A stretch of 38,036 nt of DNA from Anaerovoracaceae bacterium (GCA_045116695.1 JBGUME010000020.1:1-38036), one strand, 5' to 3'; counted from the first letter of the stretch, positions 8,751 through 38,036 are shown. Program-made: numbers and translations. The notes: generated by a model not told the origin, from the letters alone.

Positions 8751-11645
8751 ATGGCAAGCACTAACAGGATCAAAGGAATCACTATAGAGTTAGATGGCGA
8801 TACCACCAAACTCACCCAAGCCATCAAAAAAAGTGAATCAGAGATAAGAAGTGCCACAAGTGGGCTTAAAGATGTCAATAATCTTCTTAAAATGGATCCT
8901 GGCAACACAGAGCTCCTGACACAAAAATATAATTTATTACAGCAGGAGATCGGGGGAGCCAAGGATAAGCTGCAGACGCTCAAAGATGCACAAGCTCAGA
9001 TGGCATCCGAAGGCAAGGTTGGCACCGATGAGTATAATGCGCTTCAAAGAGAAATTACAGATACAGAGCAGAAAATAAAGAGCTTAACAAAAGAAATTAA
9101 GAACTTCGGATCAGTAGGAGCTCAGCAGGTAGCAGCCGTCGGAGAAAAGATGAAAGATCTCGGCGGGAAGATGGAAACAGCTGGGCAAAAACTACTTCCG
9201 TTGACAGCGGCTCTGACAGCAGCCGGAACTGTAGGCGTGCAAAAGTTCGCCGAGGTTGATAAGACGATGACCTTGACGAATCAGACTATGGGAAATACTG
9301 CCGAAGAGGCAAAGCTTCTCAGTGATTCGATGAAAGAAGCTGCAGCCAACTCGACATTCGGCATGAATGATGCGGCTACAGCATCTCTCAATTTTGCCCG
9401 CGCCGGGCTGAGCGCCGCAGAAGCCGCAGCTGCTCTGGCACCGGCGATGAACTTGGCTGCAGGCGAAGGAGGAAATCTGGATGTTGTATCAGCTGGGTTG
9501 GTTGGTACAATAAATGGATTCGGAGATTCCTTCGATAATACTACTCATTATGCCGATGTGTTTGCGGCTGCATGTAATAACTCAGCTCTTGATGTAGATG
9601 GGTTGTCGAATGCCATGGGTGTCGCAGCTCCGGTCTTTAAATCAGCCGGGTATACGGTAGAAGACGCGGCTTTATATCTTGGAATACTTGCTGATAAAAA
9701 TATAGAAGCAACGGAAGCGGCTAATGGTTTAAAAACAGGTATCACACGACTTGTTGCTCCTGCAAAGCAAGGAAAAGAAATGATGATGGATCTCGGTCTC
9801 ATCACAGAAGATGCGGGCGGAAAGCTGGTAAACGCTTTTACCAATGCTGACGGATCCATGAAATCTACCATCGAGGTACAGCAGATTCTACATGATAAAT
9901 TTGCAGATTTATCAGAATCGGAACAGATAGCGGCAGCGTCTGCGATATTTGGCAAAAACCAAATGTCAAAATGGCTGGCCCTTATAAATACAGCACCAGA
10001 AGAAGTTCAAGCTCTGTCGGATCAGCTGACAGATTGCGCCGGTACAACTCAGGAGATGGCTGACGCCATGATGAGCGGTTTCGGTGGCTCGCTTGAAAAA
10101 TTAAAGTCAAGTATAGATGTGGCCGCCACATCTTTAGGAGAAGCATTAGCACCAACGATATCGAAGATAGCGGAGGCAGTACAGAAAGCTGTTGACTGGT
10201 TTAATTCTCTCGACGAAAGTCAGCAACAGATGATAGCTAAAATAGGACTCGTAGTAGCAGCCCTCGGCCCTGTGCTGATCATAGGTGGGAAAATAGTAGG
10301 CGGTCTTGGCTCAATCCTGACACTGGCTCCTAAAGTAGTAGGAGCGTTTGGCTCAATAGGAGGCGCTATAAGCGGATTTGTTGGAAAAGCCGGATCAGCG
10401 GCATCAACGGCGACATCCGCAACGTCAAGCATAAGTAAAATAGGAAGTTCGGCAGGAACGGCAGCATCAGGAATGTCATCGGCGGGAACCGCGATGGGCA
10501 CGCTTGCACAGAATGCTCTTGGATTCATTGCGCTTGGAGCCGGAATACTTCTTGCTGCTGCAGGTATCGCCTTATTGGCTCAGTCAGCCATAGCGCTTGC
10601 TAAAGCAGGACCCGAAGCAGGTCTTGCCCTGCTTGCCCTTGTTGGAACCATGGCATTGTTTGCGGCCGGTGCCGCAGCCCTCGGTCCAGCACTTACAGCC
10701 GGAGCTGTTGGACTTGTAGCCTTCGGAGCAGCTGTGGCGCTTGTAGGCGTCGGTGTATTGGCAGCATGTGCCGGCTTGACTTTACTCGCAGGGCAGCTCC
10801 CGACAATAGTTCAATACGGAGGTCAGGCAGCGGTAGCGATTGCACAGCTTGGAGCCGCACTTGTGGTTTTTGCTGCAGGGTGCACATCAGCATCAGGCGG
10901 CTTGACTTTGCTTGCAGCAGGATTGCTTCTTGCTGCTGCAGGGCTTGGAACAGCCACAGTGGCCATGCTTGCATTTACTGTTGCAGTATTGGCTCTTAGC
11001 GCGGGAATGGTTGTACTCACTGCTTCAACAACAGCACTTGCCGTGGCAATCGGATTACTCGCAGCGGCAATCTTGGCACTTGGTGTTTCAATAAATACAT
11101 CGACAAAATTGATCATTGAATCATTCCGGTTGATCAAGAAAGAGGCCGAAGATACATTCAATGGGATGTTAAAAATTATTGAAACGGTACTCGGATCAAT
11201 ATACAAGAAAGTAGAAGAAAAATTCGGGAAAGTAAAGGAATTTATAAAAGGCGTCGTCGAATGGCTCAAGAAGGCGTTTGATTTTGAATGGAAACTTCCC
11301 GATATCAAATTGCCGCACTTTAAGATAGATGGCAAGCTTTCACTTGATCCTCCATCTATGCCGAAGATATCCGTAGATTGGTATTCTAAGGCTATGGAGA
11401 ACGGTATGATTTTAAATTCTCCGACTATATTCGGAGCGTCCGGAGGAAAGTTCCTGGGAGCAGGTGAGGCAGGATCCGAGGCGATAGTCGGTACCGGATC
11501 CCTTCAGAATATGATCACCAGTGCGGTAGCCGCCGCAGGAGTCGGCGGAGATATCGTCATTCCTGTATATGTCGGCAACCAGAAACTTGAGACAATGGTT
11601 GTGCAGGCTACACAGATCAACAACTATAGATCGGGAGGCAGATAA
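8751..11645 (+). CDS. Tail tape measure protein
   Basis: 964 aa with an N-terminal coiled coil, a TP901-type core (NSTFGMNDAATASLNFARAGLS) and a long Ala/Gly-rich hydrophobic segment. Confidence 0.9.
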   Translation: MASTNRIKGITIELDGDTTKLTQAIKKSESEIRSATSGLKDVNNLLKMDPGNTELLTQKYNLLQQEIGGAKDKLQTLKDAQAQMASEGKVGTDEYNALQREITDTEQKIKSLTKEIKNFGSVGAQQVAAVGEKMKDLGGKMETAGQKLLPLTAALTAAGTVGVQKFAEVDKTMTLTNQTMGNTAEEAKLLSDSMKEAAANSTFGMNDAATASLNFARAGLSAAEAAAALAPAMNLAAGEGGNLDVVSAGLVGTINGFGDSFDNTTHYADVFAAACNNSALDVDGLSNAMGVAAPVFKSAGYTVEDAALYLGILADKNIEATEAANGLKTGITRLVAPAKQGKEMMMDLGLITEDAGGKLVNAFTNADGSMKSTIEVQQILHDKFADLSESEQIAAASAIFGKNQMSKWLALINTAPEEVQALSDQLTDCAGTTQEMADAMMSGFGGSLEKLKSSIDVAATSLGEALAPTISKIAEAVQKAVDWFNSLDESQQQMIAKIGLVVAALGPVLIIGGKIVGGLGSILTLAPKVVGAFGSIGGAISGFVGKAGSAASTATSATSSISKIGSSAGTAASGMSSAGTAMGTLAQNALGFIALGAGILLAAAGIALLAQSAIALAKAGPEAGLALLALVGTMALFAAGAAALGPALTAGAVGLVAFGAAVALVGVGVLAACAGLTLLAGQLPTIVQYGGQAAVAIAQLGAALVVFAAGCTSASGGLTLLAAGLLLAAAGLGTATVAMLAFTVAVLALSAGMVVLTASTTALAVAIGLLAAAILALGVSINTSTKLIIESFRLIKKEAEDTFNGMLKIIETVLGSIYKKVEEKFGKVKEFIKGVVEWLKKAFDFEWKLPDIKLPHFKIDGKLSLDPPSMPKISVDWYSKAMENGMILNSPTIFGASGGKFLGAGEAGSEAIVGTGSLQNMITSAVAAAGVGGDIVIPVYVGNQKLETMVVQATQINNYRSGGR

Positions 11646-16859: not shown

Positions 16860-17708
16860 ATGAGTAAGATCACAGATTATTCAGCCATCGAAGCGCTCAA
16901 TTCCGGAAGCGTGCTGTTGGTTGACGGAACGGGCGGGACCAAGAAGATCCTGGCAACAAATCTGATGAAGGCCCTGGCTGAAGTATCGGATGATGTAAAT
17001 TTGCACCGGAACACATACGGCGGAAGAAGCCTCGGTACCAGCGTATCAGCTGACCAGTGGGCTCAGATATCCGCTGGTACCTTCCACGGGATGCTGGTAG
17101 GTGACTACTGGACCATCGGAGGCGTGAACTGGCTGATAGCTGACTTTGACTACTGGCTTCATACCGGAGATACCGAGTGCACAGCGCATCATGTCGTAGT
17201 TATCCCGGAGACCTGCCTGTATAATGCGAAGATGAATGATTCAAATATCGTTACCGGAGCGTATGTCGGATCGGTTATGTATACGACCAACCTGGCCACG
17301 GCCAAGACGACGATCAACAATGCGTTCGGATCAGCGCATATATTGAGCCATAGAGAATACTTGGCAAATGCGGTAACAGACAACAGAGAGACAGCTCATG
17401 CATGGAAGGATTCAACTGTAGATATCATGAATGAATCAATGGTATATGGCGGGGAGAAATTCCATAACCAGATGCAGGGAACATCATGGGCTGAATATCA
17501 TACTATTGACAAGACACAGCTGGCACTTTTCAGGCTGGATCCTACCAAGATAGTAGCGTTTTATAATAATGCTCGTGCGTACTGGTGGCTGCGTGATGTC
17601 GTGGGCTCGACGAGCTTCGCGTCTGTGTACAGCTACGGCATTGCGAACGACGCCAGCGCGTCGTACTCGATTGGTGTCCGCCCGGCTTTCGGTATCATCG
17701 GATCTTAA
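16860..17708 (+). CDS. DGR target protein 1 (putative receptor-binding protein with a C-terminal variable region)
   Basis: The last 45 codons contain VR1. The C-terminus ...AYWWLRDVV...GVRPAF is typical of DGR CLec-type variable proteins. It is the last gene of the tail module. Confidence 0.85.
   Translation: MSKITDYSAIEALNSGSVLLVDGTGGTKKILATNLMKALAEVSDDVNLHRNTYGGRSLGTSVSADQWAQISAGTFHGMLVGDYWTIGGVNWLIADFDYWLHTGDTECTAHHVVVIPETCLYNAKMNDSNIVTGAYVGSVMYTTNLATAKTTINNAFGSAHILSHREYLANAVTDNRETAHAWKDSTVDIMNESMVYGGEKFHNQMQGTSWAEYHTIDKTQLALFRLDPTKIVAFYNNARAYWWLRDVVGSTSFASVYSYGIANDASASYSIGVRPAFGIIGS
17574..17690 (+). repeat. DGR variable repeat VR1
   Basis: Gap-free 117-nt alignment to the TR. All 16 mismatches are at TR adenines. 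Confidence 0.9.
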
Positions 17709-17712
17709 ATCA

Positions 17713-17729
17713 CCGCCCCTTGTGGGCGG
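17713..17729 (+). promoter_or_regulatory. GC hairpin downstream of VR1 (candidate DGR target-recognition stem-loop)
   Basis: CCGCCC-CTTGT-GGGCGG starts 22 nt after the VR1 end and 4 nt after the stop codon. The same stem follows VR2 and is absent after the TR. Confidence 0.6.
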
Positions 17730-17744
17730 GGATGGAGGGAAACA

Positions 17745-18362
17745 ATGTCAAGCGTCCCAAAAGGCCGCCGGAAGGAATCGCCCTTCCAGGCGCGGCATAA
17801 CTACTATAATCTTCGGGATGAGATCACAAGGCTCATGATCAACGACTTCGGATTTGATCAGGAGAAATACAATGCCAGGATAGAAAAATACCGGCAGGCT
17901 CACTCGAAGGCAGATAATACGGATAAGATCGTGGAACGGTGGAAGCGTAAGTCAGACGCCTTCAATAAGTGGTTCATAGATAAGGAATGCGACGCGGTAC
18001 TTGATATCCTGCGCAAGATCGAGTCGGAGTTCACATACGGAAACTCGATATTCCCGTCAGAGACTCCGGCCAAGATGTGCGAATATCTTGAAAGAAGGAA
18101 ACACATCACGGCAGCGATATCTTACTGCTATGTATTAAAGCAGGAGCTCCTGTATATTATCAGGACTTTGCCTGTAGATCTGAACAGATACTATCACTAC
18201 GAGAAGGCGATAGATGCACAGATATCTTTATATAAGGGCGTGAGGCAGTCCGATAACCGATTCCTGAAGAATAAGAAAAAGTCGATTGATATAAGCGATG
18301 AGATCACCGGTATATCCGAGATCATTATCGCTTTATTCAATAAAATACGGGGCAATCTTTGA
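17745..18362 (+). CDS. avd: Avd-like DGR accessory protein (unusually long, 205 aa)
   Basis: Basic, helical ORF in the canonical slot between the target gene and the TR. Its stop lies 1 nt before the TR. GGAGGGA RBS. Confidence 0.55.
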   Translation: MSSVPKGRRKESPFQARHNYYNLRDEITRLMINDFGFDQEKYNARIEKYRQAHSKADNTDKIVERWKRKSDAFNKWFIDKECDAVLDILRKIESEFTYGNSIFPSETPAKMCEYLERRKHITAAISYCYVLKQELLYIIRTLPVDLNRYYHYEKAIDAQISLYKGVRQSDNRFLKNKKKSIDISDEITGISEIIIALFNKIRGNL

Positions 18363-18363
18363 A

Positions 18364-18480
18364 CGTGCGAACTGGTGGCTGCGTGATGTCGTGAACTCGA
18401 CGAACTTCGCGAATGTGAACAGCAACGGCAATGCGAACAACAACAACGCGTCGAACTCGAATGGTGTCCGCCCGGATTTC
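18364..18480 (+). repeat. DGR template repeat (TR)
   Basis: 117 nt with 30 adenines and 13 AAY codons in the VR frame. It is the invariant partner of VR1 and VR2. Confidence 0.9.
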
Positions 18481-18658
18481 GATTGTATCGAATGTAAGAC
18501 CTTAAGATAGGCAATGATATGAAACCGAAAGGAAAGACTGTCCCTGCCGGATGGCTTAATGATAGCGCGCAAGCGGAGCTGTCCTATGCCAGTTTGATCC
18601 ATGGTTTGTGATTACGATTGCAGCCTATCCGGATCTTAACCCGCGAGGGAGCATAGGA
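18364..18658 (+). ncRNA. Predicted DGR RNA (TR plus a 178-nt spacer upstream of the RT)
   Basis: Non-coding stretch between the avd stop and the likely RT start. The call is by analogy to the BPP-1 TR-Sp RNA. Boundaries are not determinable from sequence. Confidence 0.4.
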
Positions 18659-19822
18659 ATGATTTTAACAAGTGATATGAATGTTCTGTATGATGCATTC
18701 AGAGCTTCAATGAACAGTAGCTCCTGGAAGACTGAGCCTCAGAGGTTTGAATCAGACTTCCTTATGGAGATAACACAGCTGTCAGATGAGTTGAATGACA
18801 GAACATATGTGACCAAGGAAAGAAATGTCTTCGTCACTCATGAAAGAGGTAAGGCGAGGCTGATCCATGGCGGCCGGATGCGAGATCGTGTGGTCAGGCA
18901 CGCTTTATGTGATACTGTCATGAATCCGATTATAGACAGATACATAATCCATAATAATTGCGCGAGTCAAGAAGGTAAGGGTGTAGACTTTGCCAGGAAG
19001 AACTTCGAGAAGGATCTTCATAATTACTGGCTTGAGCACCGGACAAACGACGGCTGGATCTGCTTCATAGACTTCTCAAAGTTTTATGACAACATCCGGC
19101 ACGACAGAGTCAAAGAGTCCGTCTGCAGGATCCTTGATGAACACTCCGCCTGGTTATTCTCGAGTATCATTGATACCTTCAAGGTGGATGTCTCCTATAT
19201 GTCAGATGAGGAGTATGAAGGATGTATAGACCGGAAGTATAACTCGATCGAATACTATGAGACCATCCCGGAGGAGCTTCGGACCGGGAAGAAGTTCATG
19301 GCCAAGTCCGTGGATATCGGAGACCAGATATCGCAGAGCATCGGAGTATTCTTTCCTACTCCGATAGATAACTACATCACTATAGTCAGAGGATTCAAGC
19401 GGGCCGGAAGATACATGGATGATATCTATATGATCCATCACGACCGGGATTATCTCATCGAGACTCTTGAGGGAGTATGCGAACAGGCCGAGCGCCTGGG
19501 CCTGTATATCAATAAGAAGAAGACTCATATCTGCAGGTTATCAGATAAGTATAAATATCTTCAGTTCAGATATACGCTCACCGAGACCGGCAAGGTCATA
19601 AAGAGGATCAATCCCAAGGCAACGACCAGGGAGAGAAGAAAACTGAAAGCATACAAGAACCTGCTTGATAAGGGTGAGATTGAGTATGAAGATATAAAGC
19701 AGGCATACATGAGCTGGATGGGAAACTATGCGCGTGTTATGTCCAAGAAACAAGTTAAGAACATGAAGGAACTATATAAACAACTATTTAAGGAGGATCT
19801 ACGATGGAAGGCAAAAAACTGA
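18659..19822 (+). CDS. DGR reverse transcriptase
   Basis: Motif A FIDFSKFYD, the DGR-specific IGDQISQ (IGxxxSQ) and YMDD are present. AGGGAG lies before ATG 18659 (the ORF track begins at GTG 18608). Confidence 0.9.
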   Translation: MILTSDMNVLYDAFRASMNSSSWKTEPQRFESDFLMEITQLSDELNDRTYVTKERNVFVTHERGKARLIHGGRMRDRVVRHALCDTVMNPIIDRYIIHNNCASQEGKGVDFARKNFEKDLHNYWLEHRTNDGWICFIDFSKFYDNIRHDRVKESVCRILDEHSAWLFSSIIDTFKVDVSYMSDEEYEGCIDRKYNSIEYYETIPEELRTGKKFMAKSVDIGDQISQSIGVFFPTPIDNYITIVRGFKRAGRYMDDIYMIHHDRDYLIETLEGVCEQAERLGLYINKKKTHICRLSDKYKYLQFRYTLTETGKVIKRINPKATTRERRKLKAYKNLLDKGEIEYEDIKQAYMSWMGNYARVMSKKQVKNMKELYKQLFKEDLRWKAKN

Positions 19823-20279: not shown

Positions 20280-20409
20280 GAAACTTGTAATTGAGCAGGA
20301 AGAACAGATCGAGAGACAGAGTAGAGTCATCCGGGATCTGCTCATGCAAGTTATCCAGCTTAAGCAGCTGGTGAGCGAGATGATGGATGCGGAGGATGAT
20401 GCAAAGTGA
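20269..20409 (+). CDS. Small coiled-coil protein (46 aa)
   Basis: Internal ATG of track ORF 20161-20409. It overlaps the XkdX stop and the next gene's start. Confidence 0.3.
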   Translation: MSLEKLVIEQEEQIERQSRVIRDLLMQVIQLKQLVSEMMDAEDDAK

Positions 20410-20942
20410 AAAGAATAATAAGACTGTTTGTGATGGTGGCATGCGTCTTGATGATGCATGTCACTGTTTATGCTGAGATAAACTACGATCTTCTGTACAA
20501 CTGGGCATATCAGCCGGCCAACGTGCAGATGAATCTCGTGCTTCAAAATACAAATATACAGGTTGTAGATAGACTTCCGTGGGAATCTCCGGATCTCTAT
20601 GAAACTTATGCATATACGACTATGAATGTGGTTCCTGGAACGCGGTATGTATCCAGTATTGATATGTATATCAAGAAAGGATGCGAGTATGCCCTGACTC
20701 ATGAAGTTGGCCACTGCATAAGCAACTACAATCATTCTGTATATTGGTGGTGTGAACAGCCTATATATGATCAGATCTGGCAGATCGAGAGGCGAAACTG
20801 CATCCTGTTATATCAAGGTTGGGATAATAAGCTTGAGTATTTTGCATGTGCTTATGATGCATATATAAGATATCCTGAGATGCTTAAGCAATCATGTCCC
20901 ATGACATACAACTACATCCAGGTAGTTTTAAACTATACATAA
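20406..20942 (+). CDS. Secreted zinc metallopeptidase-like protein (HExxH; ATLF/M34, Pro-Pro-endopeptidase-like)
   Basis: Signal peptide MKRIIRLFVMVACVLMMHVTVYA, then THEVGHC (HExxH), then a downstream EYFACAYDAY that resembles the ATLF-domain EYFAE motif. Confidence 0.55.
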   Translation: MKRIIRLFVMVACVLMMHVTVYAEINYDLLYNWAYQPANVQMNLVLQNTNIQVVDRLPWESPDLYETYAYTTMNVVPGTRYVSSIDMYIKKGCEYALTHEVGHCISNYNHSVYWWCEQPIYDQIWQIERRNCILLYQGWDNKLEYFACAYDAYIRYPEMLKQSCPMTYNYIQVVLNYT

Positions 20943-29695: not shown

Positions 29696-30138
29696 GCGAA
29701 GAAGTAAATCTCTACATCAAGACATCCAGGGAGAGTCCGAAGCCCGGAGCAGGATCCTACATAGCAATCCTGGAGGCAACGACTGAATCCGGCAAGACCG
29801 GAACCCTGACACTTAAAAAACAATATGACCAGATCACTCCGCATCAGCTGGAGCTTAATGCCATAAACGATGCGTTGCACCGGTTCAAAAGACATGTTGA
29901 GGTCAAGATCCATTCAGAACATGGCTGGTTTGAGACCATCAGAACACGGGGCTGGTTTGAAAAGTGGCAGAAGAACAGCTGGTTCGTGAAGGGCAAGCGG
30001 GCAGCAGGCGCGGAAGTACTTGAAGAGATATGGATGCTTGAGCATGTATGCGGCATCACCATATTGAGTACGGACAAGGACCTGGGAACATTCAAGACCT
30101 GGCTTGACGCGGAGATCGAGAGAGGGGAGACAAGATGA
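29692..30138 (+). CDS. RNase H-like protein (RNase HI fold, catalytic Asp apparently substituted)
   Basis: By-eye alignment to E. coli RNase HI: GAGSYIAIL, QLELNAINDAL (E48 kept), WFEKWQKNSW. D10 aligns to K and D70 aligns to E. Confidence 0.55.
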   Translation: MSEEVNLYIKTSRESPKPGAGSYIAILEATTESGKTGTLTLKKQYDQITPHQLELNAINDALHRFKRHVEVKIHSEHGWFETIRTRGWFEKWQKNSWFVKGKRAAGAEVLEEIWMLEHVCGITILSTDKDLGTFKTWLDAEIERGETR

Positions 30139-30443
30139 AGAGCATCATTCCACAGGAAGATGGGACATGCTGGTTATGTCAGAGGCTTGAGCTCAATCCG
30201 AGATACTTCCGGAAGGGAGAACTCGACACTCATCATGTATTCTACGGCACGGCCAACAGAAGACAGTCCGAGAAGTACGGCCTTAAGGTCAAGCTATGCA
30301 AGGATCATCATACTGACGGCAAGAAGGCAGTACACAGGGATCCCATCACAGACGATTACCTCAAGAGATATTCTCAGAAGCTTTTTGAGGAGAAGTACTC
30401 ACATGAGAAGTTTGTGGAGGTATTCGGAAAATCATGGTTATGA
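30135..30443 (+). CDS. Zinc-binding HNH-like protein
   Basis: CWLC...THHVFYGTANRRQSEKYGLKVKLCKDHH fits a His-Me finger pattern. Confidence 0.4.
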   Translation: MKSIIPQEDGTCWLCQRLELNPRYFRKGELDTHHVFYGTANRRQSEKYGLKVKLCKDHHTDGKKAVHRDPITDDYLKRYSQKLFEEKYSHEKFVEVFGKSWL

Positions 30444-30581
30444 ACCGGCGACCAGCTGGGCCGGTCCATATAGGGTTGAAACACCTGGCGAGAGCCAAAA
30501 GAAACCGCTGGTACCTGTATCACAATATTATAAGCCATTTCAAGGGTCCCGGTTCCGGCCGGGATCCGGAAGGGGAGAGCA

Positions 30582-30911
30582 ATGCAAGCAAAATATCACT
30601 ATAACCTCTATCATCCGGACGGGCATATAGTCGGCGTTGATGTGACTCGTTCGGAGATAGCCAAGCTCATAGGATGCCCGGAGGACTCGGTAAATCAGAA
30701 GCTCAGACATATGGCAAGAGGGCAGAAAGCCAAGCTTCACCAGTACAACATAGAATGCATCCTTGACAGAACAGATCCTCCGGAAAATAAAGCAGCGAAA
30801 AATCTGCTCATGCTGGAATGGGATAAAACAGTCGCGCCATTCAGGAAATTGGCAGAAAGGAGAACAACATGTACGACAGATTCGGAGAATTTGACTCCTG
30901 GGAAGAATTAA
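30582..30911 (+). CDS. Hypothetical protein (possible HTH)
   Basis: AGGGGAG RBS. RSEIAKLIGCPEDSVNQKLRHM is HTH-like. Confidence 0.45.
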   Translation: MQAKYHYNLYHPDGHIVGVDVTRSEIAKLIGCPEDSVNQKLRHMARGQKAKLHQYNIECILDRTDPPENKAAKNLLMLEWDKTVAPFRKLAERRTTCTTDSENLTPGKN

Positions 30912-31357
30912 ACCAGGCAGCCCAGGGCCAAAAAGAAGAAGGAGATGAAGAAGCCCTTCTCATACTGGCCAAGGAAAACGGCATCGACAAGGAAGATGCA
31001 GAAGATTATTTCGACGGAGCCATTCAGGAATTATGCACTCCGCTGACAGCTGCCTTCGGGAAGCTGCAGGTAGAAGATGATGATCTTAAGACCAAGGACA
31101 TCATGAAGGACTGGTGGAACTACATCATGACCTTGGTAGCAGCTGATGAGCAGATGGCCATAGCAGTCCGGAAAAAAGGTAAGAGCCTCAAGGGATGCAT
31201 CGGGGAGCTGCTTAAGTGGAGCTTCAACCATCAACAGCAGGTTGACAAGGATATCTTAAAGGCAGCAGGCGTATCAGCAAGCAAGGTCACGCTGGGTATT
31301 CCCGGAATGGGAACAGCCCACAAGATCATCAAAGAATATTACCTGGGAGGTAAGTAA
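30869..31357 (+). CDS. PcfK-like protein (tentative)
   Basis: AAAGGAG RBS. ...DEQMAIAVRKKGKSLKGCIGELLKW...IIKEYYLG resembles the PcfK-like pattern. It is paired with a PcfJ-like gene. Confidence 0.4.
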   Translation: MYDRFGEFDSWEELNQAAQGQKEEGDEEALLILAKENGIDKEDAEDYFDGAIQELCTPLTAAFGKLQVEDDDLKTKDIMKDWWNYIMTLVAADEQMAIAVRKKGKSLKGCIGELLKWSFNHQQQVDKDILKAAGVSASKVTLGIPGMGTAHKIIKEYYLGGK

Positions 31358-32926
31358 ATGGATCCGGAGAACATCAAATACCTTAAGCCGGTACCGAATA
31401 TATACGAGTACGGCCTCAAACAGATTACAGTAGCCCATATCTTTTACAAACGACGCGGAAACTATGCACACTGCCTCTGTAGTGAATGCGGAGCAGAATA
31501 TGAGATACGAACCACATCAACCGGAGATCCATTCCTGGACGATGCTGCCCGGATCGAGATGCCAAAGAGGGACGAAGAGACGAAGTGCCGGTCCTGTAAG
31601 ATTAAGGCAACCTATAAACCGGCCGGAAGCTTCGCGGCCGAATGGTACGAAGCCCATATTGTGACCGGAAAGAAGATAAGCGATACAGAATTTGTCTTCC
31701 GGGCCTTCTGGCTCAACAAAAAGATCATTAAGAACTGCAGGATGGCGTTCAGATGCGTAGAGATCCGGAGGATCTATCTGCAGAAGGGCAAGAAACCGAT
31801 CAGATTCTCACCAAGTTATTATGATGACAGCAAATGGTGCCAGGGAGGATCTGGAGACACATACAGATACAAGGTGCATCCTTCCACATTCAAGGAAATA
31901 GCCAAGACCGGGATGTTCAAGTATGTTCCGAGATGCGAAAAGATCGAGGACACATATTATGACGATTCATGGGTGATGGATTATTATATCGCGGCTGCGA
32001 GATATCCGGACATGGAGATGATCCTCAAACTGGGAATGGAAGAGCTGGCCGACGGACTTGTAAAGAAGTGGCCACTTAACTTCAATCCGAGGGGGAAAGA
32101 AATCCACAACCGTCTAAGGATAAATAAAGAGCACTTAAAGCTATTCATAGAGCAGAAGGGGAACCTTAAGACCTTAAGTCTCTTGCAGCTTGAGAAAAAA
32201 ACCGGACAGCATTGGAGCGACGAAGAGTTCCAGATCGTCAAAGATATCGTCGAGGGCAGCTATGACGGAATGGCAAAGCTTAAGACAGCCATTGAATATC
32301 CTTCACTCATAAAGCTCAGAAACTACTTCCGAAAGAAGGGCATCTACTACAAAGAAGAGAAGAACTACAGTGAAGCGTATAAGGCAAGGAATGAATACTT
32401 CGATTATCTGAATTTAAGGATAAAACTTGGATATGACATGACAAATGACATAATCATTTTCCCTAAGGACATCCACAGGAGACACAACGAAATGGTTCTC
32501 GAGAATGAGAAGGAAAAGTTTGCAATAAGGGAGAGAGAAGTCCGCAAAAAATATCCAAATATCGAGAAAAACTACAAGAAGTATTCGGATATATATGCAG
32601 CCGCGGCAGCAGGCTATATAATTCGCCCGGCCAAGGATGCAGCCGAGATCGTAGCTGAAGGAAGATATCTTCATCATTGCGTAGGTCTTGATACATATCT
32701 GTCAAAGCACAACAAGGGACAGAGCATTATCCTCTTTCTGAGAAAAGCTTCAGAGAAGGACATTCCCTTCATTACGATCGAGATCAAGGGAGACAAGATC
32801 ATTCAGTGGTACGGAGCATATGACAAGAAACCGGAGCCGGAGTACTTCCAAGCCTGGCTTGATACATACACCGAGGAGCTCCGGAAGCATAATCAGAAGC
32901 CCGAAAAGAAGAAAAAAACAGCATAG
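31358..32926 (+). CDS. PcfJ-like protein with N-terminal zinc ribbons (tentative)
   Basis: CLCSECG...CRSCK. The C-terminus GRYLHHCVGLDTYLSKHNKGQSIILFLR...PFITIEI...IIQWYGAYDK resembles the PcfJ-like domain. Confidence 0.5.
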   Translation: MDPENIKYLKPVPNIYEYGLKQITVAHIFYKRRGNYAHCLCSECGAEYEIRTTSTGDPFLDDAARIEMPKRDEETKCRSCKIKATYKPAGSFAAEWYEAHIVTGKKISDTEFVFRAFWLNKKIIKNCRMAFRCVEIRRIYLQKGKKPIRFSPSYYDDSKWCQGGSGDTYRYKVHPSTFKEIAKTGMFKYVPRCEKIEDTYYDDSWVMDYYIAAARYPDMEMILKLGMEELADGLVKKWPLNFNPRGKEIHNRLRINKEHLKLFIEQKGNLKTLSLLQLEKKTGQHWSDEEFQIVKDIVEGSYDGMAKLKTAIEYPSLIKLRNYFRKKGIYYKEEKNYSEAYKARNEYFDYLNLRIKLGYDMTNDIIIFPKDIHRRHNEMVLENEKEKFAIREREVRKKYPNIEKNYKKYSDIYAAAAAGYIIRPAKDAAEIVAEGRYLHHCVGLDTYLSKHNKGQSIILFLRKASEKDIPFITIEIKGDKIIQWYGAYDKKPEPEYFQAWLDTYTEELRKHNQKPEKKKKTA

Positions 32927-32935
32927 GAGGGAAAC

Positions 32936-34225
32936 ATGGAAGAAATATCAATCAGAGAAGTCAACAATTTTGTAACACTCAAGCAGGCACTCGGCCAGGA
33001 GCTGACCAAGACCTCACAGAGCTTCATCAGGATCGGATATCTCTTGAAAAGAGCCAGAGATGAAGAAGAAATCCTTAAGGACTCCGGATATTCAGATGTC
33101 AACGAGTTCGCATCAGCTGAGTTCGGGCTGGATCGGAGTCAGGTATCGAGATTCACAAGGATAAACGACAGATTCTCAATAGGCGGATATTCCGAGCACC
33201 TTAAGAGCGAATATGAGCAGTACGGATCCGCGAAGTTGTCCCTGATGTTGACTCTTCCGGATGAGATCAACGAAGAACTCTCTCCGGAGTACTCAAAATC
33301 CGAGATAAACGCGATAAAGACTGAATACGAGGCCGAACAGAAGATATCCGACATGGAAGTCCTGATGGAAGATACGGAAGGGATCCCGGATGAGTTCATA
33401 GCTGCCATCGTCAAGGAATTGAACGATGAGCATCCTGAACCGGTGACGAACTTCCATGATTCTTATGAAATGGCTCAAAAACTGAATGTGGAGCCTGATT
33501 CGATGGACGTCAAAGAGGCCTTCATGCCGGATGGAGACAGAACCTACTCGATAAGGATCCCGGGACAGGGAAGATTCATGGTCAACATGAAGGAGGCGGG
33601 GATCACGATCGTCAACCTGCGGGCCCTGGATGAGAAGTCGCCTCTTTCGTGGGATGAGTTCTATGAAGCACTCAAGATCGACATGGCCACAAGGACATTC
33701 GCGGTCGAAGAGGAGAAAAAGCCGGAGAAGAAAGAAAAGCCCAAAAAGGTCGAACCATCGAAGCCCAAAGAGAATAAATATGTCAAAGAAGTCCGGGAGT
33801 TCCATGAACGGGAAGATGCTGCACCGGTGCAACAGGAAGAAAAAACCGCAGAAGTCCAGAATGAGGAGCCTGTAGAACAATGTCAGGACAATGTACCACA
33901 GGAAGACATCAGCGAGGGCCTGGATGAGATCCCGGAGGAAGAGACGCCGGCAGCAGGTCCCGAGGAGAAGGGTCCGGTAGATATCACGCATCCTGGATTA
34001 TATTCAAAAGTGGAACCGGAAGAAACCATTAAAGCCGTAAGCCGAGAGGAGCATCATTTGGCAGCAGGCCCCAGTGATCTGACGGCATTTCAGAAGCAGG
34101 TCATTGATAAGCTGGATCTTATGAAGGGCATAATTTTAGGCATGGAGACAACGAGGGAAAACTGGAATAAAATCACGGATATGTTAAGAGAGACGATCAC
34201 ACTTATCAATAAGTCAACGTTTTAG
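32936..34225 (+). CDS. Putative DNA-binding protein with an acidic/Lys-Glu-rich C-terminal half
   Basis: The N-terminus FIRIGYLLKRARDEE...GYSDVNEFASAEFGLDRSQVSRFTRINDRF is an HTH of the ParB/KorB-like or DUF3102-like type. Confidence 0.45.
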   Translation: MEEISIREVNNFVTLKQALGQELTKTSQSFIRIGYLLKRARDEEEILKDSGYSDVNEFASAEFGLDRSQVSRFTRINDRFSIGGYSEHLKSEYEQYGSAKLSLMLTLPDEINEELSPEYSKSEINAIKTEYEAEQKISDMEVLMEDTEGIPDEFIAAIVKELNDEHPEPVTNFHDSYEMAQKLNVEPDSMDVKEAFMPDGDRTYSIRIPGQGRFMVNMKEAGITIVNLRALDEKSPLSWDEFYEALKIDMATRTFAVEEEKKPEKKEKPKKVEPSKPKENKYVKEVREFHEREDAAPVQQEEKTAEVQNEEPVEQCQDNVPQEDISEGLDEIPEEETPAAGPEEKGPVDITHPGLYSKVEPEETIKAVSREEHHLAAGPSDLTAFQKQVIDKLDLMKGIILGMETTRENWNKITDMLRETITLINKSTF

Positions 34226-34235
34226 GAGGTGAATT

Positions 34236-34631
34236 ATGAACAAGAAAATAGCAATCATATCCTTTTTACTCATAGCACTAACAGGTATTACAGCCTGCGA
34301 AACAGAAGCACAAAGGGTATCGTACAACATATCGCAGGAAGCCGATAATTTCAACACCATAAGACAGATCACGGTGATCAACTGCATCCAGGGGGATGTT
34401 CTATTCCAGATGACCGGGAAGATGTCAATTACAGCTGACACAAACGATAATCAACTTGAAGTAATAGTTGAGGATGATAATGGCCATTATAAAAAACACT
34501 TCATAGGTCTCTCAGATAATGTGACATATGTAGTAGAAGACATCACAGATGGGGATGTATCTAAATATCACTATACTCTCAACTTCAACCCTAAAATGTG
34601 GATACCGGTAGATATAAAAACAATAGATTAA
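34236..34631 (+). CDS. Lipoprotein
   Basis: MNKKIAIISFLLIALTGITAC contains a lipobox (L-T-G-I-T-A-C). AGGAGGTG RBS. Confidence 0.65.
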   Translation: MNKKIAIISFLLIALTGITACETEAQRVSYNISQEADNFNTIRQITVINCIQGDVLFQMTGKMSITADTNDNQLEVIVEDDNGHYKKHFIGLSDNVTYVVEDITDGDVSKYHYTLNFNPKMWIPVDIKTID

Positions 34632-34641
34632 GGAGGGCAAC

Positions 34642-34821
34642 ATGCAGAAGGCAGATGGAGAAGATCCGGAGATTAAGATAGGCGACTGGATCCAGTGTAA
34701 GGACCGGGATGACATGATAAACACAATGCATGACTTGATAATGGATGGCATTGATACAGATTTCCGATACATCCGAAACGGAGTAAAGGGCCTATGGTTG
34801 GAGGTGATTTCGATTGGATGA
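34642..34821 (+). CDS. Hypothetical 59-aa protein
   Basis: AAGGAGGG RBS. Too short for the ORF track. Confidence 0.4.
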   Translation: MQKADGEDPEIKIGDWIQCKDRDDMINTMHDLIMDGIDTDFRYIRNGVKGLWLEVISIG

Positions 34822-35017
34822 CGAATATTATGATCAATACCACAACAATCGGAATTTCAAGGACTATGTAGATGCATATTGCAAGAGTCGCGGCTTGGGA
34901 ATAATCGAAGCACTTGGCCACATAACCGTCAAGGAAGTGGCCAAGTACTACAAGACTAAGAACGCAGATGTTATTCCGGCGCCGGGGCAGCAGGCGAGTT
35001 GTGATACGAGGAGGTAA
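34814..35017 (+). CDS. Hypothetical protein
   Basis: TTG start overlapping the previous stop. 67 aa. Confidence 0.35.
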   Translation: MDDEYYDQYHNNRNFKDYVDAYCKSRGLGIIEALGHITVKEVAKYYKTKNADVIPAPGQQASCDTRR

Positions 35018-35019
35018 AC

Positions 35020-35508
35020 ATGTTACATCACTTAAAAATCAAGGAGGAGTTCGCTGATGCGATAGTAAGAGGCGAGAAGACCTTCGAGATCAGGATAAAC
35101 GACAGAGGATTCCAGAAGGGGGATCTGATAGAGTTCATAACAGTCCAGGAGGATCTTCCCTTCCCGGATTGCCATCCTATCCACAACCGGACATACGAGA
35201 TCACTTATGTCATGAATGGATGGGGACTTAAAAACGGATATGTGGTCTTCGGGATCCGGGAGACAAAACAGACAGAATGGATGCCGTGCTCGGAAATGTT
35301 ACCGGCCCGCTCCGGAGAGTATATGGTCACATGGACGGCCGACTGGGATAACAAATGCGGCCGGACGAAGCCCATGTTGGAGATGCTGGAATTTGAATAT
35401 GATCCGATGGATCCTGAATGGGACACTACAGTCATAACAGACAGAGGATACCAAAATATTAAGGTCACAGCCTGGAAGGATCTTCCGGAACCTTATGAGG
35501 AGGACTGA
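35020..35508 (+). CDS. ASCH/DUF3850-like N-terminal domain fused to a DUF551-like C-terminal domain
   Basis: HHLKIKEEFADAIVRGEKTFEIRINDRGFQKGDLIEF (DUF3850-like). WMPCSEMLPARSGEYMVTW (DUF551-like). Confidence 0.5.
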   Translation: MLHHLKIKEEFADAIVRGEKTFEIRINDRGFQKGDLIEFITVQEDLPFPDCHPIHNRTYEITYVMNGWGLKNGYVVFGIRETKQTEWMPCSEMLPARSGEYMVTWTADWDNKCGRTKPMLEMLEFEYDPMDPEWDTTVITDRGYQNIKVTAWKDLPEPYEED

Positions 35509-35509
35509 G

Positions 35510-35878
35510 ATGTCAAGGAAAACAATTCCGAAGAAGATCCGGCAGCAGGTATATGAGAAGTATGATGGCCATTGCGCATATTGTGGAATCAAACTTGAAA
35601 TGAAAGACATGCAGGTTGACCATATAGATCCGGTATATCGAGCATATTACGATCATCGGGAAGTCGATGAGAGCATCGATAATTATAATCCGGCATGTCG
35701 GGCCTGTAACTTCTACAAGGGCGTATGGCCGCTCGAAAAATTCCGGAACAATATACAGCATATGTTGATCGGGAAGCTCCGGAAAGATTTCAACTACAAA
35801 ATGCTGGTTAAGTACGGAATGATTCGAGAAGACTTCAAACCGGTGAGATTCTATTTTGAGGAGATGGATAAATGCTGA
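35510..35878 (+). CDS. HNH endonuclease
   Basis: GHCAYCG...VDHIDPV...NYNPACRACNFYKG. GAGGAGG RBS. Confidence 0.8.
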   Translation: MSRKTIPKKIRQQVYEKYDGHCAYCGIKLEMKDMQVDHIDPVYRAYYDHREVDESIDNYNPACRACNFYKGVWPLEKFRNNIQHMLIGKLRKDFNYKMLVKYGMIREDFKPVRFYFEEMDKC

Positions 35879-36141
35879 AGCCAACAGTCAAGGCAAAAGA
35901 GTTTGAAAAATATGGATTCAAGAGATGCAAGAGACCATACGGTAATTCGGAATGTTATTACCTATGTGTGGCCAAAGGAATCAAGATGATATTTGTGTCA
36001 GATATCATGTATGCAGTCAACGACTGGAAAGAAAATGATCCGAGGATACATAAAAATCCAAACTGCAGATACAGCGATAACAGAGATGCAATGGACATCA
36101 CCTATGATCTGATAGTGGCCGGAATGTTAAAAAGGGAGTGA
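35872..36141 (+). CDS. Hypothetical protein
   Basis: 89 aa, overlapping the HNH stop. Confidence 0.45.
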   Translation: MLKPTVKAKEFEKYGFKRCKRPYGNSECYYLCVAKGIKMIFVSDIMYAVNDWKENDPRIHKNPNCRYSDNRDAMDITYDLIVAGMLKRE

Positions 36142-36144
36142 AGA

Positions 36145-36816
36145 ATGGATAAAAAAGCAATAGACAGAGATTTTGAAGACTTACTAAGAAGATCAAAAGA
36201 GACTGACAAGAAGATAAGAGAGATTAGAGAGGAGTATGAGGCATCCGGGCAGCAGGCCAAGAAGGAGGAAGAGATGAAAGTATACAGAAGAGTGAAGATG
36301 AAGACCAACCATATCGAGGTAGGCGACCAGATCAAAATCAAGCTTAAGGGACGCGGAACCTTCACAGCGACAGCCCAGAAGGTAGATATCACAGGAGGAG
36401 AGTGCTGCATCCTGTTCTTATTCGACAACTGCATTGACAGGCATTGTATGAATGAGACTGATACGAATGAGGGAGGATACGAGGAGTCAGACATGAATAA
36501 GTATCTGAACACGGAGATCCTGGATGCATTCCCGAAGAAGATCCGGAACCTGATGGAGCCGTTTGATGTCAAGCACACATATCTCCGCTTACTAAGCGAG
36601 AGTGAGGTATTCAGCGATGATGCACTGCCGCTCATGCAGGATGTCAAGAACAGAGTATGTTCTGATACGGAAGGATACCGTGCGAGCTGGTGGCTGCGTG
36701 ATGTCGTGTACTCGACGTCCTTCGCGATTGTGAGCAGCAACGGCCTTGCGAGCTACAACGGCGCGTCGAACTCGTATGGTGTCCGCCCGGCTTTCATGCT
36801 GACCTTTGATCTATAA
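36145..36816 (+). CDS. DGR target protein 2 (remote; small, no signal peptide, C-terminal variable region)
   Basis: The C-terminus contains VR2. The domain is related to target 1 (MNETD..GGYEESDM vs MNDSN..GAYVGSVM; ASWWLRDVV...GVRPAF). The N-terminal 45 aa form a charged helix. Confidence 0.85.
   Translation: MDKKAIDRDFEDLLRRSKETDKKIREIREEYEASGQQAKKEEEMKVYRRVKMKTNHIEVGDQIKIKLKGRGTFTATAQKVDITGGECCILFLFDNCIDRHCMNETDTNEGGYEESDMNKYLNTEILDAFPKKIRNLMEPFDVKHTYLRLLSESEVFSDDALPLMQDVKNRVCSDTEGYRASWWLRDVVYSTSFAIVSSNGLASYNGASNSYGVRPAFMLTFDL
36679..36795 (+). repeat. DGR variable repeat VR2
   Basis: Gap-free 117-nt alignment to the TR. All 14 mismatches are at TR adenines, and the substitution set differs from VR1. 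Confidence 0.9.
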
Positions 36817-36818
36817 TC

Positions 36819-36837
36819 TCCGCCCTTAATGGGCGGA
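36819..36837 (+). promoter_or_regulatory. GC hairpin downstream of VR2
   Basis: TCCGCCC-TTAAT-GGGCGGA forms a 7-bp stem. It starts 23 nt after the VR2 end and 2 nt after the stop codon. Confidence 0.6.
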
Positions 36838-36849
36838 CAAGGAGGGAAT

Positions 36850-37038
36850 ATGAAGGATATAGCTTATATCTGCGATAGAAAAAAGAGCTGCAGATTCAGT
36901 ATCGCCTGCGGGAAGCCATGCACTCACACATTCGATCCGGAACATGCAGCCAACGGGCCAACAAAGGATCCGGTGAACGACAACAGATTCAGGGAGCTCA
37001 AAGACAGTTATTGGGAAATAGGGGGAAAGACTAAATGA
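36850..37038 (+). CDS. Cys-rich small protein
   Basis: AAGGAGGGAAT RBS. MKDIAYICDRKKSCRFSIACGKPCTH. Confidence 0.45.
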   Translation: MKDIAYICDRKKSCRFSIACGKPCTHTFDPEHAANGPTKDPVNDNRFRELKDSYWEIGGKTK

Positions 37039-37445
37039 CACAGAACGATCTTGAATTGATTAAGAAAATCAATGAGGAGCTGATCTGCCTCAGAATGGAG
37101 TACAACACACTGGCTGAGAATATTGCGGTATCTCAGGCAGCTCCTGACGGGATGCCATATACAAAGACCAACAAGATAGGCACTCCAACAGAGAATAAGG
37201 GGATCAAGCTGGCCGAGTGCACGGAAAATCTCCGGAAAAAGGAAGCTGCACTTAGGAGAGCGAAAACAAAACTGACCAAGGAAGTGGAAAAAGAAGATGA
37301 TGTTTTGATTCAAAAAATCATCAAATACAGGTGTATTTTAATGCTTTCATGGGAAAAAATTTCACAGGCATTCGATGGCATCTATTCCGCTCAATATCTG
37401 CGATTGAAGTATTTTAGATACAAATCAAAATTACCCAAAAAGTAA
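37035..37445 (+). CDS. Putative late-gene transcriptional regulator (sigma-70 region-4-like, RinA/DUF1492-like)
   Basis: The C-terminus KIIKYRCILMLSWEKISQAFDGIYSAQYLRLKYFRY is HTH-like. The position just upstream of HNH and terminase is typical. Confidence 0.4.
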   Translation: MTQNDLELIKKINEELICLRMEYNTLAENIAVSQAAPDGMPYTKTNKIGTPTENKGIKLAECTENLRKKEAALRRAKTKLTKEVEKEDDVLIQKIIKYRCILMLSWEKISQAFDGIYSAQYLRLKYFRYKSKLPKK

Positions 37446-37542
37446 CAGTATGAAAAAATGAAACACATGAAACACACATATGTGATATTATGGTATTGGG
37501 TAAAAACTGTTTGAGAATTTCCATGTTGTTCTCCAAGCATGA

Positions 37543-37586
37543 AATGCGTTCCGGATCTGCGCGACAATTCGGAGCGCATTTTATTT
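37543..37586 (+). terminator. Candidate intrinsic terminator upstream of the packaging genes
   Basis: AATGCGTTCCG / CGGAGCGCATT forms an 11-bp stem with one G-U pair and a 16-nt loop, followed by TTATTT. Confidence 0.35.
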
Positions 37587-37643
37587 CCCGGAAAAATATT
37601 TCGGCAGATATTTTCCTGGGCTTTATTTTTTGGAAATAGTTTT

Positions 37644-38000
37644 ATGACGAAAAAAGAAAAAGAATATGTCGAGTATTGTCTGGCCACAGATCCTGTATTG
37701 TTTTACCACTGGAATAAGTGGGAGAAAAAACGGCGAGAGATATTGGCACTGGATAAGTTCGAGTGTCAGAACTGCAAGAATAAATACCACAGATACAGGA
37801 AGGCCAACACAGTCCACCATGTCAACCACTTGAAGGACAGGCCGGAGCTGGCACTGAGCACATGGTACACAGAGCCGGCGACACACAAGCGCAAGCGACA
37901 GCTGATCAGCCTGTGTCACGACTGCCATGAAGAGGTACACGGCTACAGGTGCAAGGAAGGTGTGGCCAAGCCAGAGCTCACTGATGAACGGTGGGACTGA
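37644..38000 (+). CDS. HNH endonuclease (terminase-associated)
   Basis: CQNCKN...VHHVNHL...LCHDCHEEVH. It lies directly upstream of terS/terL, as in HK97-like cos phages. ATG 37644 is the preferred start. Confidence 0.8.
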   Translation: MTKKEKEYVEYCLATDPVLFYHWNKWEKKRREILALDKFECQNCKNKYHRYRKANTVHHVNHLKDRPELALSTWYTEPATHKRKRQLISLCHDCHEEVHGYRCKEGVAKPELTDERWD

Positions 38001-38036
38001 TCGAGCCGATCGGGCACACGAGCGCGTGGTACCCCC

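Follow-up and report, generated by a model that had tools for sequence, protein, structure and literature searches.

A small DUF6273 protein as a remote second target of a DGR in a temperate siphovirus

Genome organization and retroelement components

The stretch of DNA analyzed here (the window; 38,036 nucleotides from Anaerovoracaceae bacterium, GCA_045116695.1, JBGUME010000020.1) is a complete temperate siphovirus genome. An ORF for a P27-family terS reads through the junction between the window's end and its start. Gene order begins with terS, TerL, the head and tail genes, target 1, an Avd-like gene, the TR, and the RT gene. Small genes (one with an ATLF-like domain), an endolysin gene, and minus-strand integrase and exonuclease genes follow, and then an antirepressor, a replisome organiser, PcfJ, and VG64. 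Next come ASCH, HNH, and 89-aa genes and target 2; a 69-aa gene, a PHROG 'transcriptional regulator', and a further HNH gene lead back to terS. A megablast search of isolated phages with 24 kb of the window gave no match. The features considered here are these:

16860–17708: target 1, 282 aa, matching the C-terminal third only of the DUF6273 profile
17574–17690, plus strand: VR1, at the 3' end of target 1, the final tail-module gene
17713–17729, plus strand: GC hairpin 3' of VR1, CCGCCC CTTGT GGGCGG, 22 nt past the end of homology
17745–18362, plus strand: Avd-like accessory gene, 205 aa, 3' of target 1 and 5' of the TR
18364–18480, plus strand: TR of the single DGR, flanked by the Avd-like and RT genes
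18608–19822, plus strand: DGR reverse transcriptase, 404 aa (RVT_1, E 5e-13; phrog_1423, E 1e-55)
35020: ASCH/DUF3850 gene; 35495: HNH gene (neighbours of target 2)
36145–36816, plus strand: target 2 ORF, 223 aa, with one DUF6273 domain
36145–36273, plus strand: optional N-terminal extension of target 2, 43 aa, a long charged helix (residues 3–38) and a linker
36679–36795, plus strand: VR2, coding for the final 39 conserved residues of target 2
36778–36795, plus strand: IMH-like GC-rich 3' end of VR2, GGTGTCCGCCCGGCTTTC; TR counterpart ...GGATTTC
36819–36837, plus strand: GC hairpin 3' of VR2, TCCGCCC TTAAT GGGCGGA, 24 nt past the end of homology
37035: PHROG 'transcriptional regulator'; 37539: HNH gene, then terS/TerL (neighbours of target 2)

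These annotations agree with an earlier reading of this DNA made from the sequence alone (the sequence-only reading), which had placed target 2 among HNH, ASCH, and regulator genes ahead of the packaging module, in a non-structural region. Close relatives are syntenic with the window at target 2. Scans for promoters and terminators across 30000–38036 did not rise above the shuffled expectation and yielded no transcription-unit boundaries. Target 2 is just three genes upstream of HNH-terS, and read-through into or from a late transcript may occur. The 136-aa regulator and its positional counterpart, a regulator of Acutalibacter phage Fontainebleau, are not homologous, and for this reason 'late activator' stays a guess for it.

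A repeat of ~130 nt is present as three direct copies in the window, at 17574, 18364, and 36679. The TR and VR2 align over 117 nt with 0 gaps and 14 mismatches, and all 14 are at TR adenines. The alignment of the TR with VR1 is likewise gap-free over 117 nt, with 16 of 16 mismatches at TR adenines. For a TR having 30 adenines in 117 nt, the hypergeometric probability that every mismatch is at an adenine is 3.2e-10 for VR2 and 7e-12 for VR1. Seven columns are changed in both VRs, and four of these carry different bases (18394, G/T; 18404, G/C; 18413, C/T; and 18439, G/T). The coordinates and counts of the sequence-only reading were exact for both the VR2 match and the shared columns, as were its VR2 translation and its 223-aa ORF; its claim that one TR serves two independently diversified targets, VR2 being the second, is supported. 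The TR is the sole copy of the three with an adenine at every variable column. Its adenines are distributed evenly between the first (15) and second (15) codon positions, with none at the third (10 AAC and 3 AAT codons), and both VRs are in frame 0 at the C-termini encoded by their respective target genes. VR1 is 790 nt from the TR. The distance of 18.3 kb given earlier for VR2 holds for the linear window; the genome joins end to start, and measured across this join VR2 is 19.7 kb away.

The RT contains the motifs IGDQISQ and YMDD, the first of which follows the [I/L/V]GxxxSQ pattern of DGR-type RTs. Its best sequence match in the PDB is 8ub7, a 328-aa 'Reverse transcriptase'. The Avd-like protein has 33% identity (E 9e-32) to its positional counterpart in Fontainebleau and a weak N-terminal match (E 7e-4) to the annotated Avd of Roseburia phage Shimadzu; searches of Pfam, NCBIfam, and the PDB gave no match for it.

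The 3' end of VR2, GGTGTCCGCCCGGCTTTC, recurs unchanged in VR1 and every VR2 allele described below, with a single fixed C/A difference from the TR, and presumably functions as the IMH. This difference (18476 A>C) is one of the 14 mismatches of VR2. The same change occurs in VR1, in the VR2 alleles of six relatives, and in Fontainebleau, and it therefore behaves like the distinction between IMH and IMH*; on this comparison it would be a fixed IMH/IMH*-type difference rather than a product of random mutagenesis. The hairpins downstream of VR1 and VR2 have the stem CCGCCC/GGGCGG in common. The VR1 hairpin has the family consensus loop CTTGT, from which the VR2 loop, TTAAT, departs. No such hairpin was seen in the sequence downstream of the TR. 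The VR2 hairpin is not followed by a T run and was not called by the terminator scan. A perfect GC hairpin closely follows the VR in 52 of 82 related loci; the stems covary between lineages, and the 5-base loop is conserved (CTTGT, CCTGT, or CTCGT).

Diversification of the remote variable region

We compared VR2 in the DNA of six relatives from different samples with that of the window, making seven alleles. All seven differ from one another, almost only at columns in which the TR has an adenine. Of the 30 TR-adenine columns, 27 vary, 19 of them with at least three alleles. At the non-adenine columns, 16 of 87 vary, and a single one has at least three alleles. The variation at non-adenine columns equals the background of the gene body, where 81 of 405 columns vary. 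Pairs whose gene bodies show 99% identity share 72% and 86% identity in the VR, and in the proteins of close relatives the bodies are near-identical, with differences confined to VR-encoded residues. All relatives' alleles retain an intact ORF, IMH-like end, and hairpin stem. The sequence-only reading had raised the case of an invariant VR2; VR2 is instead hypervariable among close relatives, specifically at TR-adenine columns. VR2 is thus diversified in nature, as judged from alleles of separate samples.

The non-adenine differences in VR2 are either shared within a sub-lineage or private to one divergent relative (L124), and may reflect polymorphism of the relatives' own TRs, which they fit. 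We considered these differences as evidence against DGR action and rejected them as such, on account of their background rate and their lineage-shared or private distribution. The TR-like C-terminus of P0008 was likewise considered as a natural recombinant; because its contig continues into the RT gene, we prefer to read it as an assembly chimera.

Two explanations that dispense with current retroelement action at VR2 were weighed. The three copies might be ordinary paralogous repeats, produced by duplication and divergence or by gene conversion with no retroelement involved. Three direct repeats do exist, and nothing further speaks for this explanation, whose probability is practically nil: every one of the 30 mismatches falls on an adenine of one copy alone (P 3e-10 and 7e-12), a DGR-type RT adjoins that adenine-bearing copy, and the targets have no similarity outside the repeat. 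The adenine-only pattern of mismatches by itself already refutes it. VR2 might alternatively be a fossil or passenger that formerly received cDNA and is now neither diversified nor selected, in a dispensable gene. The off-consensus loop of the VR2 hairpin would suit a fossil, as would a prophage cluster in IMG/VR (L047–L068) with identical VRs and no perfect hairpin and the example of Lelie, which is without read-level activity (PMC11792537). Against this stand the seven alleles, no two of them alike, the 72–86% identity of VRs carried by 97–99% identical bodies, and the intact ORF, IMH-like end, and hairpin stem in every allele. The homologous VR2 of Shimadzu, moreover, is actively mutated in culture and in mice (10.1101/575076). 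Non-adenine columns vary at the background rate, and VR2 is therefore not a fossil; we consider that explanation highly improbable. VR2 is almost certainly an active second DGR target of a known family.

The target 2 protein and its relatives

Target 2 matches the Pfam DUF6273 profile (PF19789) with an E value of 3.5e-16 and a score of 60 bits (cut-off 23.5) over profile positions 20–170 of 172, and it matches phrog_21980 with an E value of 9e-37 over positions 43–239 of 241. Protein searches returned 43 homologues, all DUF6273. Most of these are 176–204 aa in length and start with MKVY, which corresponds to a family-conserved alternative start in target 2, the ATG at 36274, having an invariant AAGGAGG ribosome-binding site and giving a product of 180 aa. 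Target 2 is a protein of 20–26 kDa. A query of GTDB genomes with the single protein gave no match, and a query with a small alignment led only to a 54%-identical match in a rumen Clostridiales MAG.

The charged helical N-terminus noted earlier is indeed predicted as a helix (AF2 pLDDT 88–96), but it is a variable add-on that is missing from most relatives. The extension occurs in two relatives (L002 and L003) and is absent from most homologues, and in a third (L004), whose gene body is 97% identical in DNA, unrelated sequence replaces it. The start of target 2 is thus ambiguous and the N-terminal helix dispensable, and the charged helix may not belong to the main product. The helix could be an attachment or oligomerisation element, which counts against a non-structural role.

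The AF2 model of the 223-aa form has a pLDDT of 92, and that of the 180-aa core is a single α/β domain with a pLDDT of 94 and a pTM of 0.89. Foldseek searches of the PDB with both models gave no significant match, C-type lectins appearing only at E values of 1–3, and assignment to the C-lectin fold rests on the literature for this reason. Among predicted viral structures, the matches were to DUF6273 proteins of gut phages, both small and of tail-fibre size; nearly all the other phage DUF6273 proteins from the fold search are tail-fibre-like or Hoc-like. By sequence profile, there is a match to the N-terminal DUF6273 domain of the gut IgA protease ThomasA (9qa6). This DUF6273 domain is not required for catalysis by the protease. 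The VR of target 2 has a weak PHROG match to a Hoc-like decoration family.

As had been claimed from the sequence, target 2 has no signal peptide or transmembrane segment (maximum Kyte-Doolittle mean over 19 residues, 1.02). The description of its body as a trimmed version of target 1 did not hold. BLASTP similarity between the two targets is restricted to the 39 VR-encoded residues, which rules out such a relationship, and target 1 covers only the C-terminal third of DUF6273. No match was found for target 2, the regulator, or the Avd-like protein in NCBIfam, nor did PADLOC, run on target 2 with its small neighbours and on two DUF6353 proteins, reveal similarity to defence or anti-defence families.

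Target 2 resembles Mtd of Bordetella phage BPP-1 in having a C-terminal VR derived from an adenine-rich TR, an IMH, and a downstream hairpin, and in bearing its variable surface on a compact binding domain. Mtd is a trimeric protein of the tail-fibre tip, attached to the fibre by N-terminal β-prism and β-sandwich domains. Target 2, on the other hand, is encoded outside the tail module and is without N-terminal attachment domains, and it does not match Mtd by sequence profile or Foldseek. It is not an Mtd-like tail-fibre tip protein. Neither is it a tentaclin as defined in PMC10743442, being a single domain with the VR at the 3' end and without an Ig or Fn3 match.

Target 2 is instead one of a group of small remote DGR targets conserved as phrog_21980, to which Shimadzu orf43 and Fontainebleau WAK78934 also belong. 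We verified the two-target layout in four further cases: Shimadzu, Fontainebleau, one IMG/VR lineage, and Toutatis.

Target 2 is of the type of orf43 of Shimadzu (LR596903), which comprises single-domain proteins of about 180–250 aa with no export signal, encoded more than 9 kb from the TR among early or replication genes, the first target being in the tail module. Cornuault et al. (bioRxiv 10.1101/575076) showed mutation of both Shimadzu VRs in DNA from virions and in isolates passaged through mice, and labelled orf43 'of unknown function'. The 209-aa orf43 is related to target 2 (tblastn E 6e-6), and as in the window, VR1 is in a tail fibre gene and is followed by Avd, the TR, and the RT, with VR2 remote. 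This VR2 is 13.9 kb from the TR, between methyltransferase and Erf genes and with an SSB gene nearby. Shimadzu differs in being a myovirus with its own TR sequence and a conventional 136-aa Avd; identity between orf43 and target 2 is only ~28%, over the C-terminal 60% of the protein, and orf43 lies deep in the recombination module, whereas target 2 is beside the packaging genes.

The closest homologue from an isolated phage is WAK78934 of Fontainebleau (ON453893), with 35% identity (E 1e-19). Fontainebleau is likewise a temperate siphovirus with a homologous Avd-like protein and VR1 in the final tail-module gene, and its IMH end is identical to that of the window, the fixed A/C difference from the TR included. 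Its VR2 is remote and has ~16 mismatches as counted by eye, all at adenines in the core. It differs from the window in the position of VR2, 25.3 kb from the TR in a gene between those for DNA polymerase I (PolA) and a helicase. One paper naming Fontainebleau (PMC10197239) makes no mention of a DGR, and the DGR layout found in the present analysis appears to be unstated in the papers searched.

In Faecalibacterium phage FP_Toutatis, gp24 is a core gene with a remote second VR 17,480 nt from the TR (bioRxiv 10.1101/2024.10.15.618418). Its product is a stand-alone DUF6273 protein of 215 aa, encoded in the early region upstream of a replication initiator and a Q antiterminator, and is a distant analogue of target 2 (BLASTP E 7e-4, in the VR region only). 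The other target of this DGR, a Hoc-like 'tentaclin', lies downstream of the RT, and gp24 itself was taken to be a receptor-binding protein (bioRxiv 10.1101/2024.10.15.618418). Toutatis-like phages keep the gp24 gene more widely than the DGR (same source), an observation that counts for a non-structural role.

Other small targets, namely nd4_tgt2 and nd12_tgt2 (PMC10743442) and those of Lelie and CP11 (PMC11792537), are single globular DUF6273 domains of 234–294 aa, flanked by short helices and with a C-terminal VR. Each is one of two targets per TR, and their role was stated to be unclear (PMC10743442, PMC11792537). In nd4 and nd12 both targets are described as being within the DGR cassette (PMC10743442), unlike the remote target 2. 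Bacterial cytoplasmic C-lectin sensors diversified by DGRs also have no export signals and have been proposed to bind variable intracellular ligands (PMC10907252). These sensors differ in being bacterial and multidomain, with NTPase or effector fusions, and in belonging to a different CLec subfamily. In concept, such binding is what a non-structural reading of target 2 would imply.

In IMG/VR, we found 202 relatives, with 79 loci in 16 clusters. Loci with the same body carry different VRs. Only a handful of the 79 loci have a TR-like copy within 10 kb. One lineage is represented by a full contig, in which VR1, the TR, and a VR2 11.2 kb away are present, with six of six mismatches at adenines. 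In 12 representative loci, we scanned the eight nearest neighbours of the target, four to each side (96 proteins), and found matches to helicase, primase, polymerase, methylase, recombinase, HTH, and DUF6353 families. Among the 25 commonest neighbour families of these 12 loci, none was for head, tail, or packaging proteins. A literature search on DUF6353 returned 0 papers. In every case examined, members of the family are encoded among early or replication genes of phages of gut Clostridia.

Proposed mechanism and function

In the mechanism we propose, the TR (18364–18480) would be transcribed, and its RNA would be copied to cDNA by the RT (18608–19822) and the Avd-like protein, with misreading of adenines. 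The cDNA would replace either VR1, 790 nt from the TR, or VR2, 18.3 kb from it, both of which present the same GC-rich IMH-like 3' end and a downstream GC hairpin. That VR2 is a genuine and currently used trans target of the single DGR of this phage is secure. Target 2 itself would be a stand-alone DUF6273 ligand-binding domain, with a 180-aa core and an optional N-terminal helix in this lineage. Judged from the position of its gene only, it would be expressed alongside the early or middle genes and be soluble in the cytoplasm, and its hypervariable C-terminal surface would bind a variable ligand, for example a molecule of the host or of a competitor. We infer the time of expression, the cytoplasmic location, and the class of ligand. 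We put the probability of this explanation as a whole, an active trans target that encodes a soluble early non-virion binder, at about 0.6.

Target 2 is probably not a built-in component of the tail. It might still be a virion-associated accessory adhesin or second receptor-binding protein whose gene lies apart from the structural module and which attaches to the tail or capsid once made (e.g., through the N-terminal helix), broadening binding to hosts or mucus. This is the published reading for nd4 and nd12 tgt2 and for Toutatis gp24 (PMC10743442, 10.1101/2024.10.15.618418). Target 2 has its TR and VR scaffold in common with the tail target, the fold search brought up large DUF6273 phage proteins that are tail-fibre-like or annotated as RBPs, the VR has the weak match to a Hoc-like decoration family, and the N-terminal helix is confidently predicted in this lineage. 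The gene, however, is among early or replication genes in every lineage examined, even between PolA and helicase genes, and the family core is the binding domain alone, with no recognisable anchoring domain. Most members lack the N-terminal helix, a 97%-identical relative has other sequence in its place, and no report of virion proteomics was found in the literature. We regard an accessory adhesin as unlikely, and favour a soluble non-virion binder over it. The consistent early-region position and the missing virion-anchoring domain would favour a non-structural soluble binder, although we hold a non-virion role, taken by itself, at a little short of even odds.

An intracellular role is not established for phage DGR targets; the sequence-only reading had said as much, and the literature found agrees, a search for non-structural phage DGR targets having returned nothing relevant. 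We suggest, tentatively and with some doubt, that the small stand-alone DUF6273 proteins of gut Clostridia phages, target 2 among them, may be early non-virion, antibody-like binders that act within the cell against variable host defence proteins, host factors, or competing phages. The phage would keep their hypervariable surface diverse with the retroelement that also serves its tail.

The novelty implied for the window did not survive comparison with the literature, in which remote or small second targets have already been published (10.1101/575076, 10.1101/2024.10.15.618418, PMC11792537, PMC10743442). The window is a complete-genome instance of this published layout of two targets, one of them a remote small DUF6273 protein. 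The regular early-module location of the family across lineages appears to be unstated in the papers searched. Remote targets were undetectable by design in the largest DGR survey (PMC8144416).

The small DUF6273 second target is recurrent, conserved, and almost always remote from the TR, and it is embedded in replication or early modules of both siphoviruses and myoviruses with several Clostridia hosts. Phage DGRs are understood as host-range devices that act on tail proteins. The regularity of the layout makes the purpose of the second target a testable question, for which Shimadzu with Roseburia, Fontainebleau with Acutalibacter, and Toutatis with Faecalibacterium are cultivable systems. 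An intracellular binder, if that is what target 2 proves to be, would give phage DGRs their first non-structural function. If it is non-structural, the programmed hypervariation of phages would extend from adsorption to intracellular conflict.

The 3' ends of the variable repeats

The last position at which the template repeat (TR) and the variable repeats (VRs) differ is an adenine in TR and a cytosine in every VR. This A/C mismatch is fixed across all alleles and in Fontainebleau, an Acutalibacter phage with a DGR and a homologous remote small target, which suggests a directional IMH/IMH* marker and not a product of mutagenesis. Hairpins follow the VRs of the window and occur at 52 of the 82 related loci.

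18476: last mismatch, A in TR
17686: equivalent position, C in VR1
36791: equivalent position, C in VR2
17713–17729: hairpin after VR1
36819–36837: hairpin after VR2

The stems of the hairpin are lineage-specific yet complementary (for example, CGGGGC/GCCCCG, CTACACCCC/GGGGTGTAG, and TCCGCACCTG/CAGGTGCGGA), and the CTTGT loop is conserved among related loci. In the VR2 lineage of the window this loop is replaced by TTAAT or TTTAT, and the lineage is still diversified.

VR2 alleles and atypical loci among relatives

In the region equivalent to VR2 (36679–36795 in the window), the related loci L124 and L002 have VRs that are 71.8% identical, as against 99.0% identity for the gene bodies. The L124 VR has 11 private differences at non-adenine positions and looks as if it had been templated by a TR other than that of the flanking gene, as would be the case in a recombinant phage. 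The contig carrying the target 2 homologue of L126 (ENA ERZ28633759 scaffold_10070) ends 11 nt past the stop codon. Here the assembly broke off at the hypervariable repeat, as it would if the sample contained more than one or two VR alleles side by side. The short contig of L086 (ENA ERZ27298608 k141_404923, positions 1–848) runs from the body of a target 2 homologue through TR-like sequence to the 5' end of an RT gene, and its product, P0008, has the translation of TR (...NNNNASNSNGVRPDFDCIECKTL) as its C-terminal end. This contig is most likely an assembly chimera formed via the shared repeat. In IMG/VR cluster c025, loci L047–L068 are prophages inside contigs of 50–270 kb. More than 10 of these loci have an identical VR, and no perfect hairpin was seen 3' of the VR in them; the small targets of this group of more than 10 may be inactive or DGR-less copies.

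DUF6353 proteins beside the small target

In many IMG/VR lineages, paralogous DUF6353 proteins (PF19880, phrog_2152; ~255–275 amino acids) lie on both sides of the small DUF6273 target, and the family makes up 15 of the 96 neighbor proteins. It is absent from the window. No paper mentioning DUF6353 was found in the literature searched, and a PADLOC scan of two of the proteins gave no match.

L063, 8386–9210 and 10565–11338: flanking DUF6353 genes
L055, L037, L033, L051, L016, and L083: further DUF6353-flanked loci

Possible genome ends and other features of the window

Two further features were observed in the window. A moron-like stretch between RT and endolysin encodes a 178-amino acid protein that carries the N/C-terminal domain of anthrax-toxin lethal factor (ATLF, PF07737, E 6e-8), and three imperfect 44-nt direct repeats are located within a 964-amino acid ORF that is tape-measure-sized.

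20406–20942: ATLF protein
10521–10942: direct repeats
8751–11645: 964-amino acid ORF
1–238 and 37900–38036: P27-family small terminase ORF

The terminase ORF reads in frame across the end-to-start junction of the window, which is therefore a complete genome. The contigs of relatives end within ~30–75 nt of the junction point, directly past an HNH gene, which suggests defined (cos-type) genome ends at this point.
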